DNA of 64,000 bases, from assembly GCF_011045215.1 (NCBI RefSeq), contig NZ_CP049201.1; one strand, 5' to 3'. The notes under the pieces were generated by a model. The model saw nothing but the letters and a program-made list of their open reading frames with translations, was not told where the DNA came from and ran no database searches. The position numbers were made by a program, and so were the translations under genes. The stretch comes from Escherichia coli. Lineage in GTDB: Bacteria > Pseudomonadota > Gammaproteobacteria > Enterobacterales > Enterobacteriaceae. Shown piece by piece: positions 34,228-63,555 of this stretch (position 1 is its first letter; every line of letters starts with the position of its first letter).

Positions 34228-35041
34228 GTTTGCCCTTCTCCGTTAAAAATTCGTCGGGTAGTTTCTGAGGGGCGTAGATCGGCAGTGCATCGCAACTGCA
34301 ATAAACCTCCTCCCCGGCAGCAGTGATTTCGTCATAAAAACCATATACGGGCTTAATCAGCCCCTGCTCCAGCGCCCACGAATCGCGGAGGAGATAAATT
34401 TTCTCGTCGCGCTCTTTGTGGTCCTGTCGGTATTTGTAGCCCGGACGCCGCCAATTCGAATGCCAGCGCAGAGCAATCGCTCCACTCTGAACAGCCAGCA
34501 GATACTTAACGTTGCTTGCCAGCTTATGCCCCTGGTCAATTGCCACCCGACGACTGATAAAATCCATATCCTTCACGGATTTCTGAAACCCGGCCTTCAC
34601 TTCCCGGCGATCAATTTCGCTCACCCCGTCAGGCGGAATGGACGTAACCCAACCCTGAAAACGCTGTATGGTTTTCTCGATGGCCTGTTCTCGGTTGAGT
34701 TTTATCAGGTTGGCACTGGCGAAAATTCGCCTGTCGAGTTCCTTGCGAAACTCAGGTTTCAGTTTTTCAACAGTGATTTTTTTAGGGCCGTCAGGAGGCT
34801 GATCCCGTAATGCCCCGCCGTCGATGACAAGACGGCTGTAGATAGCGGTGAGGTGTTTTCTGGCTACGGTATCATCAGGGGTTTCTCGCTGAGCGGCTAC
34901 ACGGAGTTTCCGGCACCATTCGAGCAATGATTTTTCGCTATCCCACCCGTGATTTACGTAGTAGTTAACGGCATCCGTCAGAACCTCATACAGCGTCCTG
35001 ATCCGTTTCTTCTTCCTCACCGCCCGGCTGGAAATTGCCAT
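34208..35041 (-). CDS. Head morphogenesis protein (Mu F-like / SPP1 gp7 family)
   Basis: Track ORF 34208..35179 overlaps portal; internal ATG at 35041; follows the portal as in Mu-like head modules. Confidence 0.5.
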   Translation of the reverse strand: MAISSRAVRKKKRIRTLYEVLTDAVNYYVNHGWDSEKSLLEWCRKLRVAAQRETPDDTVARKHLTAIYSRLVIDGGALRDQPPDGPKKITVEKLKPEFRKELDRRIFASANLIKLNREQAIEKTIQRFQGWVTSIPPDGVSEIDRREVKAGFQKSVKDMDFISRRVAIDQGHKLASNVKYLLAVQSGAIALRWHSNWRRPGYKYRQDHKERDEKIYLLRDSWALEQGLIKPVYGFYDEITAAGEEVYCSCDALPIYAPQKLPDEFLTEKGKREFNRA

Positions 35042-36425
35042 CAGGCGTCTCCTGCTTCGGTGGTTCATAATTCGCCAGCGCGTCCACATCAATGATGAGT
35101 GGAGCTTCGCCATAGGTTTGCGTGGCATTAACAAGGCTTGCCAGCCATTCAGTGACGGCGGCACGGTTTTCAGGATCAACCTGTGGCGACACGGCAGAGA
35201 AAAGTGCTATCGCCTGTTGAATCACTTTACTGTCGCTTTCCCGGCGTTTGTCCGGCGACTCCTCCACCAGCTCCTGCCATGTCGCGGTAAATTCACGTCG
35301 CCACTGGTAAAACGTGGTTTTATAGTCATCAGTTATGATGTCCGGGTAATCATTTTTCAGCGACTGATAAAATTCCTCGTTCCAGGCGATGTACTGCACC
35401 AGGCGTTCGAAATAATCCATCACGGGTTCAATCTGCTGGCGTACACCATCGATATACTGGCTGATGGCTTTCGAATCTTCGGTCCCCTCACCGAAACCAT
35501 TCGAAAAGGCTTCCTCTTTGATGAGGATCGCCGGAACGTCACTCCCTGACGCAATATCGGAAATAATATTGTCGCGTGCAGCGTTTAGCGCACCATCGAT
35601 GTTTTGTAGATTTAGCGAGGTAACGTCCTCATCCTTCCCGATACTAAGCACACCTTTATTTTTTGCCTCTTTGACGTTTTCCCTTTTTCGTCCCGTGGCG
35701 GCAGCCATGATCCCGTCAAGTTTCGAACCGTACTGCACAACTTTAGCTACCAGTACGCCCGCCTTCTGGCTGACGAGATCATTCGCCTCCATCGTGTTGA
35801 TATAGGATTTCAGGGAATAAAGAACGCGCTGAAACACACTTCGTCCGGTGAATCCGAACGATGAACTCTGAAACTCCAGATAAATCGGTGTGCCGTTGAA
35901 GATTTTCAGTGTGCGTGACGGATGCCAGTCTTTCCCACCAATCTTCAGTTTTTTATTGGCTTCCTGGAAAAACGGGCTGTTGGGGTTCTGGTCAGTCACC
36001 ATCGAACCGGAAGCGTTCAACGGGTCCCACGCGTTGATATACACGTCATCTTCTGTCAGTCCGAACGTCGGAAGCGGTTCACGACATGGAACGCTGTCGG
36101 TGCCCACGCCGATCGCTGCAGCACCGTAGCAACGAGACAGAAAAAACAGATTTTTAATCTTCTCGTTGACCTTCATGCGTTCCCATACCTCCTGAAAACG
36201 CCTCACAACCCTCTCGTCAGGGTCTGTCTCCACGTTATACTGGCGCGGCTTACACATCGCCATCAGTATGGGTTTTTCGACAAGTTTTCCGCCCAGAGGA
36301 TGGAATTGCCACAGCTGCTTACACAATTCATAGCCAATGTCGGTTCCCGGCTGAATTTCTTCAGCCTCAAGAATACGCATCAGTGCCGAACCGAGGCCGC
36401 CAGTAATCTCGATCTCTGCCATCAA
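34986..36425 (-). CDS. Portal protein
   Basis: 479-aa ORF immediately downstream of the large terminase. Confidence 0.7.
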   Translation of the reverse strand: MMAEIEITGGLGSALMRILEAEEIQPGTDIGYELCKQLWQFHPLGGKLVEKPILMAMCKPRQYNVETDPDERVVRRFQEVWERMKVNEKIKNLFFLSRCYGAAAIGVGTDSVPCREPLPTFGLTEDDVYINAWDPLNASGSMVTDQNPNSPFFQEANKKLKIGGKDWHPSRTLKIFNGTPIYLEFQSSSFGFTGRSVFQRVLYSLKSYINTMEANDLVSQKAGVLVAKVVQYGSKLDGIMAAATGRKRENVKEAKNKGVLSIGKDEDVTSLNLQNIDGALNAARDNIISDIASGSDVPAILIKEEAFSNGFGEGTEDSKAISQYIDGVRQQIEPVMDYFERLVQYIAWNEEFYQSLKNDYPDIITDDYKTTFYQWRREFTATWQELVEESPDKRRESDSKVIQQAIALFSAVSPQVDPENRAAVTEWLASLVNATQTYGEAPLIIDVDALANYEPPKQETPDGNFQPGGEEEETDQDAV

Positions 36426-51793: not shown

Positions 51794-52216
51794 TTAATGA
51801 ACAACAACAGAATCGCCGGACGAACCGCCGCCGCTGAAATGCGCTTTACGGTAAACGGCCTGGACTGCGTCATCATGCGCATCAATTGCCGTACTCAGTG
51901 CGTCCTGTGCCGCAAGTAATGCCCGTCGTTCCAGGGTATCGAAGATGCTGAGTCGGTGGCGCAGCTCGCGCGGAAGGATTGCCAGAATTGCTGGGATCAG
52001 CTTCTGAATTTTTTCTCTTTGCGTTTTCGTTTCACCTTTCAACCAACGGTGATAGATATTCTGCTGATTGTTCCAGTCCTTGCCTGGTACCAGGGGCAAT
52101 TCGCCGCCCCCCTGGCGCAGATATTCTTCAGTAATTGCATTGGCTACCCATGCCTGCCCTTTTTCGGCTGCCAGGGCTAACAGCACTGATTCGATGTGCT
52201 CATGCCTGATTTTCAT
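51794..52216 (-). CDS. Rac YdaT-like protein (140 aa)
   Basis: 140-aa ORF directly downstream of the Cro-like ydaS homologue, same size and position as Rac ydaT. Confidence 0.5.
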   Translation of the reverse strand: MKIRHEHIESVLLALAAEKGQAWVANAITEEYLRQGGGELPLVPGKDWNNQQNIYHRWLKGETKTQREKIQKLIPAILAILPRELRHRLSIFDTLERRALLAAQDALSTAIDAHDDAVQAVYRKAHFSGGGSSGDSVVVH

Positions 52217-52475
52217 GAATCAACTCCTGTGCATTTTGTGTGTTAGTCTTACATCCAACAGGTAAACCATCGGTCGGATTCGGGTAGATATCAGGCCGAA
52301 GTTCATGAGGTGTAACCTCGAAATTCGTAGCCTCAGCGATACGCAATACCTTTTCGGGGCTTAACTGACTACGGCCAGTAGCTACGAGGCTAATCATTGA
52401 TTGCGAACAACCAGCGAGCGCGGCCAAACAAGACTGTCGTACACGATTTTTTTTCAAATATTCATCTAATGTCAT
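52200..52475 (-). CDS. Cro-like HTH regulator (Rac YdaS-like)
   Basis: Track ORF starts at TTG 52502; ATG at 52475 with AAGGTG upstream; HTH SCLAALAGCSQSMISLVATG; divergent from repressor. Confidence 0.6.
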   Translation of the reverse strand: MTLDEYLKKNRVRQSCLAALAGCSQSMISLVATGRSQLSPEKVLRIAEATNFEVTPHELRPDIYPNPTDGLPVGCKTNTQNAQELIHENQA

Positions 52476-52579
52476 AAGGGTCACCTTAGTAATGCCTGTC
52501 AAAATATTAACTATATTAATTTATATGATCAATACCCATATCAGTTTGAGATTATGAGTTGTGTTCATAAAATGGTGGT
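52476..52579. promoter_or_regulatory. Divergent promoter/operator region of the immunity switch
   Basis: AT-rich ~100-bp spacer between divergent repressor and cro-like genes; operator repeats not resolved by eye. Confidence 0.45.
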
Positions 52580-53044
52580 ATGAGAAGAAAACGCGAAGAA
52601 ATCGCATCGCCAGAAGCTACGCAGCGTCTGCGCGCAGTCTGGGATGCAAAAAAAAGAGAGCTCAAACTGACTCAGGAGCTTGCTGCTGAGCTGATGGGCT
52701 TTGAGACTCAATCCACAGTTAGCCACTATCTCAACGGAAAGGCTCCACTAAACACTGATGCAGCATTAAAATTCGCTGTATTACTAAGAGTTAAGCCTGA
52801 AGAGTTGAGGCCTGATTTAGCTGATCTGATGAATTACGTCCGTTCTTCAGGAACTTATGACGAAAGTTTCGAAGGCGAAGGTTGGCGGATGGTTAACAAG
52901 CAACAAGCTGATTTACTGGATCTTTTTGAAATCCTACCCGAATCAGAAAAAGCAAAACTAATCGAAAGGCTTAAAGGTCAGAATGAACTCTACAAAGAAG
53001 CGTTTGAAAAGATGCTGGCAGCTCAGAAACGCATGAAGAAATAG
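52580..53044 (+). CDS. Prophage repressor, RacR-like (XRE-family HTH)
   Basis: 154-aa ORF, N-terminal HTH (LTQELAAELMGFETQSTVSHYLNGK); divergent from cro-like gene. Confidence 0.65.
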   Translation: MRRKREEIASPEATQRLRAVWDAKKRELKLTQELAAELMGFETQSTVSHYLNGKAPLNTDAALKFAVLLRVKPEELRPDLADLMNYVRSSGTYDESFEGEGWRMVNKQQADLLDLFEILPESEKAKLIERLKGQNELYKEAFEKMLAAQKRMKK

Positions 53045-53279
53045 CTCCCGCAACCTCGTAACTAAACCGCCATTTTTGGCGGTTTTTTTGTCCCCTCTGC
53101 CCCCTCACCTTACTTTTTTATCAAAAAAAACACTAAAAATTTCATTACGATAGTGCATTTTTATCAACAAAATGCATATTTATGTTGATCACTCATATGA
53201 ATATAACTAATATTATTGCAGAAGTAGCACGGCGCTGTAGGTTTTAGTTCCGCCACCCGGCGTTAAGGGGAGAGATAAG

Positions 53280-53853: not shown

Positions 53854-54198
53854 AACACGAAAGCGTACGGAGGAGGTGTTTTTCCCTTAGAAGGCTTGTC
53901 GTTAAATTTCTTCGACCGTGCGCTTCCGGTTGTGAATAACAACATTGCTGTGTGTAGTCTTGGCGGCATCAGTTTTTTCTTGAAGTTCGGCTGATGTCCG
54001 CCCTTTTTAAAGTGAATTTTGTGATGCGGTGAATGCGGCTCAGCGCACGCGGAACAGTTAAAAGGCCAGTTGACCTCCGTATTGGTTCTTATGGGTGGGT
54101 TCTCTGTATCCGGCGTTAATTGTTAACTGGTTAACGTCACCTGGAGGCACCAGGCACCGCATCGACAAAATTCATTTGTGAAAATGGAGATAATTATG

Positions 54199-54417
54199 AT
54201 TGCTCATCACTTCGGAACTGATGAAATACCACGTCAGTGTGTGACTCCTGGCGATTATGTTCTTCATGAAGGTCGGACATATATCGCCTCAGCAAACAAT
54301 ATTAAAAAGCGAAAACTTTATATTCGTAGCCTGACTACAAAAACATGCATTTCTGACTGCATGATTAAAGTCTTCCTCGGTCGTGATGGTTTACCTGTAA
54401 AGGCGGAGTCATGGTGA
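54199..54417 (+). CDS. Hypothetical early protein
   Basis: Track ORF starts at GTG 54178; ATG at 54199 with GGAGA upstream. Confidence 0.35.
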
Positions 54418-54587: not shown

Positions 54588-54661
54588 TTAACTGACTATT
54601 CGAAACTGAATTTATGCCAGCAATGGCAGGGATTCTTTCAACCTTAAAAAAGGAAACAGCA

Positions 54662-54961
54662 ATGCACAAGCATATTAAATGTGAAATTGAACTTGATGTT
54701 ATTAACGATTCTCTCGCCGAATTTAAATGCGGGAATACATTACATGGTTTTATTCAGATTTCCCAAAAAGAAAACATTACGGTAATTATTGATGGTGGTT
54801 ACGTTCTGGGAACATTTGATTGTGATGCATGTGCCCTTAAAGAAGTCGCATTACTCGCAGCTCGTATTGAAGAGGCTGACAAGAAATACGGTATCAGTTA
54901 TCAACGACTGAAAGAACTCTCTTATATCGCATCATCAGTTCATTTCTTTTATGCAATCTGA
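54662..54961 (+). CDS. Hypothetical early protein
   Basis: Track ORF 54614..54961; internal ATG at 54662 with AAGGAAA upstream. Confidence 0.35.
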   Translation: MHKHIKCEIELDVINDSLAEFKCGNTLHGFIQISQKENITVIIDGGYVLGTFDCDACALKEVALLAARIEEADKKYGISYQRLKELSYIASSVHFFYAI

Positions 54962-54985: not shown

Positions 54986-56887
54986 ATGAGCATAAAACAA
55001 CACTTCCTGTTACGGAAAGCGAAAAAATCATCCGGTGAACCTGACGCAGTTCTGTGGGCAAGCGACGATCTCGAATCGACCAGTGCCACTCTGGACTACC
55101 TGATTGTTAAGTCAGGTAAAAAACTGAGCAACTATTTTAAAGCTGTTGCTACGAATTTTCCTGTCGTTAACGACCTGCCCCCAGAAGGGGAGATCGATTT
55201 TACGTGGTGTGAACGCTATCAACTCGGCAAGGACTCCATCACCTGGGAACTAAAACCAGGTGCAGCACCAGACGACGTTCACCATCAGGAGAATATCCCG
55301 GAAACTGAAGAACTGGCTGGAGACCAGGAAGAAAACGCGCAGGCGGACGCTCACGGGGATTGCCAGGATTGCGAAGTTCCTGTAGCCACACTCAGTCTTA
55401 CTCATCGTTTCCTTCATCTCTTCTTTTTCGGTCAGATGGAAGGTGGAAAATACAGTAGTCACGCCACGCCGGAACAGCGCAATACCGTCATCCGGATGGA
55501 GCTGGATACGGAGGACAGCTACCTCCAGAGTCTGCTTACAGCAGTACGCTCTCATCCTGAACTGGATAAGCTGACAAACCACCATCTTGGCAGACTGGCG
55601 GAGTCTGTATCCAGAGTGTTTACCCACACAGAAACCCGTTGCATCAGCCCCGCTGAATTCGACAAATTCATTTCCACCTGGATGAAAACTGATTATCTGG
55701 ATCAGGGATTACTGACAAAAGAATGGGCGAAGGGAAACTGCGTATCTGAAATCAATCGCACCCCGTCGGGCGCTAATGCCGGTGGCGGTATCCTTACCGA
55801 CCGTGGAGAAGGTTTTGTCCATGATGATGCATCAGTAGCGCGTGACGTAGCCGCTGGCGTACTGGCACGTTCAATGGATATCGATATTTACAATCCACAT
55901 CCAGCACACGCTAAACGTATTGGGGAAATTGTCGCTGAAAATAAACCGCCATTTTCTGTTTTTTTCAGCAAATTCATCACCATGCCTGGCCACAAGGATT
56001 TCTCCCGCGCCATCGTGGTTGCGTCCGTGAAAGAAGCGCCAGTCGGTATAGAGGCTACCCCACACCATGTCACTGAATATCTGAACAGGGTGCTGACTGA
56101 AACCGATCATGCCAACCCTGATCCGGAAATCGTGGATATTGCCTGCGGTCGCTCCTCTGCCCCGATGCCACAGCGTGTAACAGAAGAAGAAAAACCGCAA
56201 CCATCTTGCGCAATGGCAGATGAACAGGCAACGGCTGAAACAGTGGAACCGGATACAAGTGAACATCATCAGGACACGCAGCCGCTGGATGCCAAGTCAC
56301 AGGCCGATGCGAAATATCAGAAACTGCGGGAAGAACTCCATGAAGCCCGGAAAAACATTCCGCCCAAAAATCCTGTCGATACAGACAAAATGCTGGCAGT
56401 CCATCGCGGTGAGTTCGTTGAAGGAATTAGCGACCCGAATGATCCGAAATGGGTGAAGGGAATTGAAACCCGCGATTCTGTGAACCAGAACCTGCCAGAA
56501 ACGGAAAAAACCAGTCAGGATGTGAAACAACCTGAGCCAGTAGTGCAACGGGAACCGGAAATAGTCTGCACCGCCTGCGGTCAGAGCGGTGGCGGCAACT
56601 GCCCTGATTGTGGCGCGGTGATGGGCGACGCAACATATCAGGAAACATTCGATGAAGAGAATCAGGCTGAAACTCAGGAAAATGATCCGGAGGAAATGGA
56701 AGGCACTGAACCATCATTAGAAAAACTCGACTGGAAAAGACAAGTGGTGATTGCGGCTGTTTATGGTTTGTGTGCGAATCCTGCAGGTATAGCCTCAGCG
56801 CCATTAATTCCGGGTATTGCAATGATGATTGCCAACAAGCTTGAAAATTTTGGGGTGACGGATGATGAGCACATACCCGATTTTTGA
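54986..56887 (+). CDS. Large hypothetical early-left protein (633 aa), acidic, C-terminal CxxC...CxxC and hydrophobic tail
   Basis: Long ORF between immunity region and gam; motif [16 protein letters not shown] then hydrophobic [30 protein letters not shown]; no family recognised. Confidence 0.6.
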
Positions 56888-57161
56888 TCGCATTGAAGAG
56901 CTGGCATGGTCACGCCACTACCAGCAGATCGTTCGCGAAGAAAAAGAAACGGAGCTGGCAGACGACCTGGAAAAAGGTCTACCCCAGCACCTGTTTGAAT
57001 CGCTCTGCATCGACCATTTGCAACGCCACGGTGCCAGCAAACAGGCAATCAGTCGCGCATTTGATGACGATGTTGAATTTCAGGAACGCGTGGCGGAACA
57101 CATCCGGTACATGGTTGAAACCATTGCTCGTCACCAGGTTGATATTGATTTGAAGGTATAA
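56862..57161 (+). CDS. gam: Gam, RecBCD inhibitor (lambda Gam-like)
   Basis: 99 aa; ...[42 protein letters not shown]... closely matches lambda Gam; precedes bet. Confidence 0.85.
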
Positions 57162-57166
57162 AACAA

Positions 57167-57952
57167 ATGAGTACAGCACTTGCAACACTGGCCGGGAAGC
57201 TGGCTGAACGTGTCGGCATGGATTCTGTCGACCCACAGGAACTGATCACCACTCTTCGCCAGACAGCATTTAAAGGCGATGCCAGCGATGCGCAGTTCAT
57301 CGCATTGCTGATCGTCGCCAACCAATACGGCCTTAATCCGTGGACGAAAGAAATTTACGCCTTCCCTGATAAGCAGAACGGCATCGTTCCGGTGGTGGGC
57401 GTTGATGGCTGGTCCCGCATCATCAATGAAAACCAGCAGTTTGATGGCATGGACTTTGAGCAGGACAATGAATCCTGTACATGCCGGATTTACCGCAAGG
57501 ACCGTAATCATCCGATCTGCGTTACCGAATGGATGGATGAATGCCGCCGCGAACCATTCAAAACCCGCGAAGGCAGAGAAATCACCGGACCGTGGCAGTC
57601 GCATCCCAAACGAATGTTGCGGCATAAAGCCATGATTCAGTGTGCCCGTCTGGCCTTCGGATTTGCTGGTATCTATGACAAGGATGAAGCCGAGCGCATT
57701 GTCGAAAATACCGCATACACTGCAGAACGTCAGCCAGAACGCGACATCACTCCGGTTAACGATGAAACCATGCAGGAGATTAACACTCTGCTGATCGCCC
57801 TGGATAAAACATGGGATGACGACTTATTGCCGCTCTGTTCCCAGATATTTCGCCGCGACATTCGCGCATCGTCAGAACTGACACAGGCCGAAGCAGTGAA
57901 AGCTCTTGGATTCCTGAAACAGAAAGCCACTGAGCAGAAGGTGGCAGCATGA
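57167..57952 (+). CDS. bet: Bet (Red-beta) single-strand annealing protein
   Basis: 261 aa, [35 protein letters not shown]..., essentially lambda Bet. Confidence 0.95.
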
Positions 57953-58629
57953 CACCGGACATTATCCTGCAGCGTACAGGGATCGACGTGAGAGCTGTCG
58001 AACAGGGGGATGATGCATGGCACAAATTACGGCTCGGCGTCATCACCGCTTCAGAAGTTCACAACGTGATAGCAAAGCCCCGCTCAGGAAAGAAGTGGCC
58101 TGACATGAAAATGTCCTACTTCCACACCCTGCTGGCTGAGGTTTGCACCGGTGTGGCTCCGGAAGTTAATGCTAAGGCGCTGGCCTGGGGAAAACAGTAC
58201 GAGAACGACGCCAGAACCCTGTTTGAATTCACTTCCGGCGTGAATGTTACTGAATCCCCGATCATCTATCGCGACGAAAGTATGCGCACCGCCTGCTCTC
58301 CCGATGGTTTATGCAGTGACGGCAACGGCCTTGAACTGAAATGCCCGTTTACCTCCCGGGATTTCATGAAATTCCGGCTCGGTGGTTTCGAGGCAATAAA
58401 ATCGGCTTACATGGCCCAGGTGCAGTACAGCATGTGGGTGACGCGAAAAGATGCCTGGTACTTTGCCAACTATGACCCGCGTATGAAGCGTGAAGGCCTG
58501 CATTATGTCGTGGTTGAGCGGGATGAAAAGTACATGGCGAGTTTTGACGAGATGGTGCCGGAGTTCATCGAAAAAATGGACGAGGCACTGGCTGAAATTG
58601 GTTTTGTATTTGGGGAGCAATGGAAATGA
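57949..58629 (+). CDS. exo: Exo (Red-alpha) 5'-3' exonuclease
   Basis: 226 aa, [40 protein letters not shown]..., essentially lambda Exo. Confidence 0.95.
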
Positions 58630-58856
58630 GCGCAGCCACAAAGCTCACAGGAGAAAAACCAGTGCGATACACAAAAATTAAACCATGTCCATTTTGTGGT
58701 TGTCCATCAGTAACGGTGAAAGCCATTTCAGGATATTACCGAGCGAAGTGTAACGGATGCGAATCCCGAACCGGTTATGGTGGAAGTGAAAAGGAAGCAC
58801 TCGAAAGATGGAATAAACGAACCACTGGAAATAATAATGGAGGTGTTCATGTATAA
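58620..58856 (+). CDS. Lar-family restriction alleviation protein (RalR-like)
   Basis: 78 aa with zinc-ribbon motif KPCPFCGC...CNGCE typical of Lar. Confidence 0.6.
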
Positions 58857-59037
58857 AATTACCGCCACTATTGAAAAGGAAGGTGGCACTCCTACTAACT
58901 GGACAAGATATTCAAAATCTAAACTAACGAAATCAGAATGCGAAAAAATGCTCTCAGGTAAAAAAGAAGCGGGCGTTTCCAGAGAGCAGAAAGTAAAACT
59001 GATAAATTTTAATTGCGAGAAACTTCAGTCCTGGTGA
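58849..59037 (+). CDS. Hypothetical small protein
   Basis: Track ORF 58777..59037; internal start [10 protein letters not shown]... assumed. Confidence 0.35.
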   Translation: MYKITATIEKEGGTPTNWTRYSKSKLTKSECEKMLSGKKEAGVSREQKVKLINFNCEKLQSW

Positions 59038-60640: not shown

Positions 60641-61576
60641 ATGCAAGAAAATCAAAAGAATACGAAGAAAGAGATATACAATCTGAACAAATTACAAAAA
60701 CGCCTGCGTCGTAACGTGGGCGAAGCCATTGCTGACTTCAATATGATTGAAGAAGGCGATCGCATCATGGTTTGCCTCTCCGGGGGTAAAGACAGCTATA
60801 CCATGCTGGAGATTCTGCGCAATTTGCAGCAAAGCGCGCCAATCAATTTTTCGCTGGTGGCTGTTAACCTCGATCAAAAGCAACCGGGCTTCCCGGAACA
60901 CGTTCTGCCCGAGTATCTTGAAAAGCTGGGCGTTGAGTACAAGATTGTTGAAGAGAACACTTACGGTATCGTGAAAGAGAAGATTCCAGAGGGCAAAACC
61001 ACTTGCTCACTGTGTTCTCGGCTACGTCGCGGTATCCTTTATCGCACCGCAACGGAACTGGGGGCGACGAAGATCGCGTTGGGCCACCATCGTGACGATA
61101 TCCTGCAAACGTTGTTCTTAAATATGTTCTACGGCGGTAAGATGAAAGGTATGCCTCCGAAACTGATGAGCGATGATGGCAAACATATCGTTATTCGTCC
61201 GCTGGCCTACTGCCGCGAGAAAGATATTCAGCGATTTGCCGATGCAAAAGCGTTCCCGATTATTCCGTGCAACCTGTGCGGTTCACAGCCTAACCTGCAA
61301 CGTCAGGTGATTGCTGACATGTTGCGTGACTGGGATAAACGTTATCCAGGGCGTATCGAGACGATGTTCAGCGCGATGCAGAATGTGGTGCCGTCGCATC
61401 TGTGCGATACCAACCTGTTCGATTTCAAAGGCATCACCCACGGTTCTGAAGTGGTTAACGGGGGTGATCTTGCGTTTGATCGCGAAGAGATCCCACTACA
61501 ACCGGCGGGCTGGCAGCCAGAAGAAGATGAAAATCAGTTGGATGAGTTACGGCTGAATGTGGTTGAAGTGAAATAA
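60641..61576 (+). CDS. ttcA: tRNA 2-thiocytidine(32) synthetase TtcA (5' end and promoter supplied by prophage DNA)
   Basis: 311 aa; PP-loop SGGKDS, CxxC clusters; N-terminal 11 codons differ from the ttcC remnant. Confidence 0.95.
60676..60690. repeat. attR core (15-bp direct repeat ATACAATCTGAACAA) inside ttcA codons 12-17
   Basis: Identical to 11532..11546. Confidence 0.8.
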
Positions 61577-63338: not shown

Positions 63339-63366
63339 AAAAAAAAGCCGACTCATCAAAGTCGGC
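63339..63366 (-). terminator. Rho-independent terminator ~190 nt downstream of zntB
   Basis: Minus strand: GCCGAC-UUUGAUGAG-GUCGGC followed by U8. Confidence 0.6.
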
Positions 63367-63555
63367 GTCGTACGAATCAATTGTGCTATGCAGTAATTCA
63401 AAAAAGGAAGTAAGACAATATGGAGCGCAACGCCCATCGCTTGACGTTGCATTCACCTGCAAGAGAGATATTGCCCTGAATGGGTAGAGAGTTTATTGAC
63501 TTCGCTCAAACTTTGCGGCGTTTTTGTATACAGACAGCCGGAAAAATTGCTTTTG

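Follow-up and report, generated by a model that had tools for sequence, protein, structure and literature searches.

Prophages of the Rac family typically carry the recombination genes recE and recT, and the question raised by the locus described here is how one of them came to carry gam, bet and exo, the genes of the lambda Red system. The locus lies in a stretch of 64,000 nt from Escherichia coli (NZ_CP049201.1, assembly GCF_011045215.1), called the window in this text, and all coordinates are positions in this window. An initial annotation, made from the sequence alone, had placed a lambda-like Red block and a Lar-family gene at 56862-58856 in a Rac-type backbone, and the open reading frame (ORF) list confirms these positions. 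The analysis points to a precise replacement. In this Rac-family prophage, integrated at the ttcA gene, a segment of 1.94 kb (56712-58650) encoding a tail peptide, Gam, Bet and Exo very probably takes the place of the RecE nuclease domain and of RecT, and functions in the manner of lambda Red. The tail, of 58 aa, would be fused in frame to the retained N-terminal region of RecE and followed by the three Red genes.

The Red cassette and its junctions

The region is organized as a tightly packed series of genes on the same strand, running from a 633-aa ORF of RecE N-terminal type (recE-N) through exo, the Lar-family ORF, rcbA, xisR and intR. From recE-N to exo, neighboring stop and start codons overlap or lie at most 5 nt apart. 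Indeed, gam starts 23-26 nt ahead of the recE-N stop codon, bet follows gam after a 5-nt spacer, and the bet stop and exo start overlap in an ATGA at 57949-57952. The three products were identified with curated family models. Gam matches PF06064 with 187 bits (cut-off 25) over the entire profile (1-98 of 98). Bet belongs to the RecT family PF03837 (116 bits, above the curated Pfam cut-off) and matches the NCBIfam equivalog TIGR01913, bet_lambda (169.5 bits, cut-off 77). Exo is a YqaJ protein (PF09588, 105 bits, above the curated Pfam cut-off). The locus combines therefore the elements that define lambda Red: a Gam-family protein, Bet, a PD-(D/E)XK nuclease of the lambda Exo type, and the gam-bet-exo order with its overlap.

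At the nucleotide level, the resemblance to lambda is confined to one blastn stretch, 56907-58640, with 95.3% identity over 1,734 nt. Within it, bet is 97.1% and exo 97.2% identical to the lambda genes. The proteins are closer still: Bet differs by the single change A255T (260/261, 99.6%) and Exo by N168D, I189V, I202M and R226K (222/226, 98.2%). Residues R28, L78, D119, E129 and K131 of lambda Exo, which we take to be those of the catalytic site, the wedge and the 5'-phosphate pocket, are all unchanged. The gam gene is more distant, with 81.5% nucleotide and 79.6% protein identity over the GamS part (20 of 98 residues changed), and its product shares 90% identity with that encoded by a Shigella-type Rac variant. 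The description of Gam as lambda-like is thus borne out, and Bet and Exo are not diverged. Their designation as essentially lambda-identical holds for the proteins and not for the DNA, which is as close or closer to the phages 2G7b, PhiR11_1 and Turner (96.8-96.9%). The Red block is a member of the common lambdoid pool of Red alleles and not a specific derivative of lambda. Other genes of the lambda pL operon (N, ral, sieB, cIII, kil and orf60a) were detected nowhere in the 64-kb window. When compared with other hybrid loci, gam, bet, exo and ralR display ratios of nonsynonymous to synonymous substitution (dN/dS) of 0.04-0.21, a sign of purifying selection.

The limits of the cassette were placed by alignment to both lambda and Rac. 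Homology to Rac stops at 56711 and resumes at 58651-58678, and blastn returns the same end-points with K-12 Rac, Rac-SA53 and OkiPb01716. The Red block occupies in this way the place of recE-recT in K-12. On the left side, the break comes directly after the RecE motif EEMEGAE (K-12 residues 558-564). The other hybrid loci stay RecE-like for 24 further codons, as far as SDETGE (residues 580-585), and switch after this motif. Compared with all other hybrid loci examined, the window carries an in-frame deletion of 72 nt (24 codons) between the RecE-like part and the tail, and it is because of these missing nucleotides that its junction falls at RecE residue ~564 and not ~585. The nuclease domain of RecE extends from residue 564 to 866 (PMC11611040), and the minimal functional RecE fragment in experiments begins at residue 588 (PMC3945230). 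As aligned, the left cut coincides with this domain boundary and leaves RecE-N as an apparently stand-alone, conserved gene. No match to the RecE nuclease domain or to RecT was found with TBLASTN across the whole 64-kb window; of the recE-recT pair expected in the Rac family, only RecE residues 1 to ~564 are represented.

On the right side, the break lies within ~20 nt past the exo stop codon, and these ~20 nt are common to the other hybrids alone. The ATGA overlap between lambda exo and orf60a is retained and now opens in frame into ralR. The Rac sequence resumes precisely at the Shine-Dalgarno sequence of ralR (AGGAG, 58649-58653), 8 nt before the GTG at 58662.

This arrangement was searched for in a set of 5,426 complete E. 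coli genomes. The exo-ralR junction is present in 15 of them, mostly bovine and mouse isolates, with 96-97.5% identity. It is found at ttcA with intR in OkiPb01695, TUM9812 and GPT24-02, and beside yebY with a different integrase in R1 and M8. Moreover, 21 public contigs carry the identical 633-aa protein in an unchanged gene order. With 15 genomes, 21 contigs and two attachment sites, the hybrid is rare yet established and mobile, and can be considered neither a one-off event nor an assembly artefact.

The same slot is filled differently in other Rac-type prophages. It encodes an 866-aa RecE and a 269-aa RecT in K-12, and a 1055-aa RecE with a 362-aa RecT in OkiPb01716, the nearest relative of the backbone (97.9% identity for 30000-54654, 86% of the span covered). 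In Shigella-type loci (for example HE616528.1, 1962253-1970486), RecE-N is either disrupted by an insertion sequence or 569 aa long, and is accompanied by a small ORF of 77 or 97 aa carrying the tail, Gam, a 365-aa AAA_24/Sak4-like protein, a DUF1187 protein, XisR and IntR; these loci lack Bet, Exo and RalR. On these comparisons, the Rac-type recombination slot is polymorphic and has at least four states: RecE of 866 aa with RecT, RecE of ~1040-1055 aa with the 362-aa RecT, RecE-N with Gam, Bet and Exo, and RecE-N with Gam and the AAA_24 protein.

Table 1. Annotated features of the recombination region, the attachment site and the immunity region of the prophage
Feature	Position	Strand	Description and basis
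Prophage repressor, 154 aa	52580-53044	+	70% identical to the Rac-SA53 repressor, 96.8% to the GPT24-02 repressor
RecE N-terminal-type ORF, nuclease-less, 633 aa	54986-56887	+	aa 1-575 RecE-like, aa 576-633 non-Rac tail
Left junction	56711-56712		End of Rac homology at RecE residue ~564; blastn end-points and alignment
Tail-coding segment and gam 5' end	56712-56906	+	Probably derived from the POCJ13 type of Stx1 phage, not from Rac or lambda
gam, 98 aa (alternative ATG 56862, 99 aa)	56865-57161	+	PF06064
bet, 261 aa, single-strand annealing protein	57167-57952	+	TIGR01913, identity to lambda
exo, 226 aa, 5'-3' double-stranded DNA exonuclease	57949-58629	+	PF09588, identity to lambda
Right junction	58630-58650		Lambda match stops at 58640, Rac resumes at 58651-58678
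ralR (lar), 64 aa from GTG 58662; Lar-like ORF opens at 58620	58662-58856	+	NF007260, TIGR03655, PF14354
RalA small RNA, RalR antitoxin	58855-59033	-	Rfam RF02694
rcbA/ydaC homologue, DUF1187, 62 aa	58849-59037	+	PF06688, 129 bits; 100% identical to K-12 RcbA over 61 aa
xisR, excisionase, 71 aa	59137-59352	+	100% identical to K-12 XisR; PF06806 (DUF1233)
intR, integrase, 411 aa	59354-60589	+	98.5% identical to K-12 IntR; PF12167 and PF00589
attR core in ttcA 5' end	60665-60690	+	25/26 nt identical to the annotated Rac-SA53 attP

The RecE N-terminal ORF and its tail

The 633-aa ORF is 66% identical to residues 1-564 of K-12 RecE. Its Pfam content is limited to PF06630, Exonuc_VIII (aa 4-183), and the PF12684 nuclease domain is absent. 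Against the NCBIfam RecE equivalog it scores 807 bits for a cut-off of 1269, the alignment covering model positions 1-578 of 877. By its domain content, the predicted product is not an exonuclease VIII, and the public name "RecE family exodeoxyribonuclease" is misleading because the nuclease domain is missing. Two motifs are invariant in this protein, a CxxC...CxxC zinc ribbon and GANAGGG...TDR. The selection analysis covered recE-N, gam, bet, exo and ralR. The recE-N frame is intact in all six loci compared, for dS values of 0.56-1.29, and its dN/dS values of 0.21-0.36 indicate purifying selection. Nuclease-less RecE forms of 624-677 aa are, in addition, numerous in the protein database.

The zinc-ribbon segment of this gene (56560-56715) has a wider distribution of its own. 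Matches of 88-96% nucleotide identity occur in ~4,466 of the 5,426 E. coli genomes, and most of those listed are annotated "exonuclease" or "3'-5' exonuclease". An example is provided by an 823-aa gene adjoining dicB in a Qin-like prophage of O157; the recE genes of K-12 type match the segment at ~88%. This segment appears to shuttle as a module, being linked to nucleases of more than one type.

The 58-aa tail (aa 576-633) is hydrophobic and has a different relationship from either neighbor. In 60-nt windows, segment 56712-56906 is 65-88% identical to phage POCJ13, versus 18-53% to lambda. The tail peptide is present in just four phages among 50,697 records, and in five close clusters, plus one weak match, among 1.84 billion representatives, where its position is C-terminal every time. 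Assignment of the tail to a known domain failed, since Pfam and PHROGs both leave aa 580-633 uncovered. Structural prediction of the whole ORF by AlphaFold2, from an alignment of 26 sequences, gave a mean predicted local distance difference test score (pLDDT) of 52.9 and a predicted template modeling score (pTM) of 0.31. The confident part is limited to a helical core at about aa 130-350, the tail being helical at low confidence. A Foldseek comparison of this model with the PDB gave no match at E < 1, and searching the PDB by sequence was equally negative.

To our knowledge, the function of the N-terminal region of RecE has been unknown for decades. The sole functional clue is that full-length RecE boosts linear-linear recombination. 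One possibility, put forward tentatively, is that this region acts autonomously, as an accessory protein in the single-strand-annealing recombination of phages, and is not a part of the nuclease. RecE-N would then be a free-standing, selected gene translationally coupled to gam, and its partners would be interchangeable: the RecE nuclease and RecT in the fused form, Bet and Exo in the unfused form, or the Sak4-like AAA_24 protein. The 58-aa tail may replace the covalent link to the nuclease, for example as a docking or localization element.

The ralR/RalA pair and the Rac backbone

The presence of a Lar-family gene behind exo is well supported. The product matches the RalR equivalog NF007260 of NCBIfam with 160.3 bits (cut-off 113), the Lar family TIGR03655 with 54.8 bits (39.6) and PF14354, Lar_restr_allev, with 52.9 bits (28.6). 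It is 93.8% identical to K-12 RalR, with a visible CxxC...CxxC motif and, against the K-12 gene, a dN/dS of 0.46, a value obtained with a dS of just 0.08. The start codon is most likely the predicted GTG at 58662. In-frame ATGs upstream, at 58620 and 58626, would lead to a RalR of 78 or 76 aa, and gene callers disagree between 64 and 76 aa in identical loci. The gene is followed by its known antitoxin. RalA is found over its full length (1-179) with 217.5 bits (gathering score 170), is identical to K-12 RalA at 177 of 179 nt, is preceded by a promoter-like TTGACG-16-AATAAT at 59099-59072, and lies opposite the rcbA ORF. Guo et al. 2014 (PMC4041452) described RalR as a non-specific DNase that is the toxin in a type I toxin-antitoxin system with RalA.

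RalA neutralizes RalR through a pairing of 16 nt, in which single mutations lowered the antitoxin function in K-12 (PMC4041452). The corresponding sequences are AAGTGAAAAGGAAGCA in ralR and AGGTAAAAAAGAAGCG for the RalA complement. In this region (58783-58800 and 58950-58970), the window differs from K-12 by one substitution in each partner, A>G in ralR, which is synonymous, and T>C in RalA; together they amount to one extra G-U pair and one extra mismatch. The pairing is 12/16 Watson-Crick, or 14/16 counting G-U, compared with 14/16 in K-12, and the contiguous Watson-Crick stretch is down from 11 to 5 pairs (12 contiguous counting G-U). A search for inverted repeats left RalA and ralR blank because this pairing appears as a direct repeat on the plus strand, and RNAduplex with the full-length RalA and ralR RNAs was uninformative.

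The upstream region of ralR in K-12, with its weak promoter-like TTGAAA-16-AATTAT, has been lost and replaced in the hybrid. Read-through from exo may consequently drive the expression of ralR. The loss of an intrinsic terminator between recT and ralR was also considered for the hybrid and dropped, as a scan of K-12 found no such terminator.

The prophage extends over ~45 kb, from ~15.4 to 60.6 kb, its left end being approximate and taken from the alignment with Rac-SA53. It is collinear with this sequenced 52-kb phage genome over 32.9 kb of aligned sequence, with conserved order, and its set of morphogenesis genes is complete. The attR core had no match in 100 shuffled sequences. Beyond intR lie two host genes, ttcA and dbpA, the latter on the minus strand. 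The resemblance to Rac initially noted for the immunity and replication genes stands for the latter, with K-12 identities of 95.7% for YdaT, 95.9% for YdaU and 96.0% for YdaV, as well as 94.5% for KilR. It does not stand for immunity: the 154-aa repressor has no blastp similarity to K-12 RacR, and the Cro-like protein is merely 42% identical to YdaS over 50 aa. The immunity type is that of Rac-SA53 and GPT24-02, and the prophage is accordingly predicted, at the level of these regulators, to be heteroimmune to K-12 Rac.

Several further observations concern this backbone. In the immunity region (52200-53044), the C-terminus of the repressor is DicA-like, and a clean terminator-like hairpin follows the repressor gene at 53064-53085. 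Just upstream of kilR, two Rfam matches remain below their gathering scores, DicF at 53949-54003 (+; 41.1 bits versus 48) and STnc100 at 54005-54210 (+; 33.3 bits versus 47); this weak pair can be regarded as a backbone feature because the same pair is found at the equivalent place in K-12 Rac. The position of racC is occupied by a 115-aa ORF (54614-54961, +; phrog_2434) unrelated to K-12 RacC, another small replaced module directly upstream of recE-N. After the terminase, a 478-aa gene (34986-36425, -) is labeled "anti-CBASS protein Acb1 family" in close relatives by the NCBI Prokaryotic Genome Annotation Pipeline (PGAP). This identity was rejected: the protein matches the portal family PF06381 (47 bits, cut-off 34), and the label is likely an annotation artefact. 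Outside the prophage, the host small RNA FnrS (RF01796, 134.8 bits) lies beyond dbpA at 63343-63460 (-) and is ordinary E. coli content. The opposite flank (1-25000, with nifJ/ydbK and ydbH) is 97.6-98.1% identical to its best matches among the 5,426 genomes, none of which reaches 99%.

Origin of the locus and comparison with known systems

The cassette itself is a mosaic, with a tail and a gam 5' end of POCJ13 type followed by a gam 3' end, bet and exo that are ~97% lambda-like. The probable source is a cross of a Rac-type phage with a lambdoid phage that already carried recE-N, tail, gam, bet and exo. On the left, the two would most likely have crossed over in recE-N, a strongly mosaic gene present in both, by relaxed homologous recombination; on the right, a join that was short or illegitimate would have linked exo to the ribosome-binding site of ralR. 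Experiments have demonstrated such relaxed homologous recombination, driven by Red or RecT, for lambdoid phages recombining with defective prophages (PMC3945230). By analogy with lambda, induction or infection would lead to expression of RecE-N, Gam, Bet and Exo, translationally coupled, from the early-left operon. Gam would block RecBCD, Exo would resect 5' ends and Bet would anneal the 3' tails. The trio would in this manner provide RecA-independent recombination, protect rolling-circle replication and replace the function of RecE and RecT.

Other explanations of the locus have to be weighed against this replacement. Gam and Lar had been read initially as a counter-defence island next to the integrase gene, and a selected cooperation of the two against host nucleases could be invoked, given the published roles of Gam against RecBCD (PMC11611040) and of Lar/RalR against EcoKI (King & Murray 1995, as cited in PMC4041452), as well as the possible co-expression of ralR with Red that follows from the replaced promoter-like element and the frame open at the exo stop. 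The anti-restriction role is contested, however, RalR having been reported as a DNase toxin and argued to be no inhibitor of restriction-modification (Guo et al. 2014, PMC4041452). The two genes are, moreover, separated by bet and exo and differ in origin. The position of ralR next to rcbA, xisR and intR is shared by K-12, Rac-SA53 and OkiPb01716, all devoid of Gam, and this type of Gam is found without RalR in the POCJ13-type Shiga toxin (Stx) phages and in the Shigella-type Rac variant. The association of Gam and Lar appears for this reason as a by-product of module swapping, and the "Lar" gene is, from its relatives, the resident ralR of Rac with its RalA antitoxin and not an import brought in alongside Gam. 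The island is in consequence quite improbable. Hardly credible is the view that the region is a non-functional relic of a defective prophage, in which an indel truncated recE and left the 633-aa ORF as a pseudogene. Such decay would account for the equivalent ORF of GPT24-02 being marked incomplete by PGAP, for the extra 72-nt deletion at the junction of the window, for the missing attL and for the RecE equivalog cut-off not being reached. It is contradicted by a frame kept open in all six loci under the constraint described above despite dS values of up to 1.29, by the fact that the 72-nt deletion is in frame, by the abundance of the 624-677-aa forms, by the consistent overlap of the ORF stop with the gam start, and by the complete, collinear morphogenesis genes.

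The polarity of the exchange could also be the reverse, RecE-N with Gam and a separate recombinase pair being the older state, from which the K-12 fusion of RecE-N to a PD-(D/E)XK nuclease, with RecT, was derived. This would fit the three settings in which RecE-N, tail and Gam occur together, differing in partner or backbone: with Bet/Exo in Stx1 phages, again with Bet/Exo in Rac hybrids, and with the AAA_24/Sak4-like protein in Shigella-type loci. It would also fit the joining of the RecE-N zinc ribbon to other types of exonucleases, which suggests that fusion to different nucleases is recurrent. Since the RecE/RecT forms are far commoner, the exo-ralR junction being restricted to the 15 genomes mentioned above, and since the tail is very rare, this scenario is considered unlikely. 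Several points nevertheless weigh against the proposed replacement of the RecE nuclease and RecT by Red. Both directions of swap, Rac gaining Red or a Red-type ancestor gaining the RecE nuclease and RecT, fit the data. The function of the cassette is assigned from identity, and the inhibition of RecBCD by Gam is assumed for a protein 20% diverged from lambda Gam. At the right junction, no flanking homology documents the mechanism. For attL, no second att core was found at up to 3 mismatches, nor any exact repeat of at least 13 nt between 13-17 kb and 60.4-61 kb. Finally, PGAP labels the 633-aa ORF as a RecE family exodeoxyribonuclease, and as an incomplete pseudogene in one relative, GPT24-02.

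Taken as a replacement by Red, the locus documents a natural Rac/Red hybrid and agrees with the idea of phage recombinases as drivers of the exchange of their own modules. It also constitutes a natural "domain deletion", in which the N-terminal two-thirds of RecE are kept as a selected gene beside a heterologous recombinase pair. This free-standing, conserved protein offers a handle on the function of the RecE N-terminus, and is the sole feature of the locus that might repay further work. Two annotation corrections follow: nuclease-less ORFs are named exodeoxyribonucleases or pseudogenes, and "Lar" is in fact the toxin RalR, paired here with the antitoxin RalA. A literature search found no description of a Rac prophage with Red genes, which is no proof of absence.

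When compared with lambda Red (NC_001416, 31348-33232), the locus has in common the gene trio, its order, the ATGA overlap of bet and exo and a Gam of GamS length. It differs by the divergence of this Gam (79.6% identity), which lacks the N-terminal extension of GamL, by the recE-N ORF upstream in place of kil-cIII, and by ralR downstream in place of orf60a. With K-12 Rac and Rac-SA53 (KU052037), it shares the ttcA site and IntR, XisR, RcbA, RalR/RalA, KilR, YdaT, YdaU and YdaV, at 94-100% identity, whereas the RecE nuclease domain and RecT are missing and the repressor and the ORF at the racC position are unlike those of K-12. The RalR/RalA pair corresponds to the known one by its equivalog score, by the identities of RalR and RalA and by the antisense position of RalA to rcbA; a new 5' flank, a frame open to the exo stop and the altered 16-nt pairing set it apart.

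Another close parallel is offered by the Stx1 phages POCJ13, 75/02 Stx, PhiR5_2 and phiSTEC1589-Stx1c, which form the POCJ13 group. In them a nuclease-less RecE-N, 682 aa long in POCJ13, bears the same tail overlapping gam and is followed by bet and exo, with ~90% nucleotide identity over 56726-58623. These phages differ by their integrase and their backbone (Sepvirinae), have neither ralR/RalA nor rcbA downstream, and encode a Bet and an Exo that are less lambda-like, sharing 94.6% and 95.6% identity with those of the window. Every part of the hybrid belongs to a known family, and the exchange follows the textbook pattern of mosaic lambdoid phages. A last comparison can be made with lambda rev, likewise a lambda/Rac hybrid produced by exchange of the recombination module, which is presented as a laboratory-selected lambda carrying the recET genes of Rac (Gottesman et al. 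1974, as cited in PMC13048471 and PMC3945230). The element described here is its natural reciprocal, a Rac backbone with Red genes, whose left cross-over falls at the domain boundary within recE.

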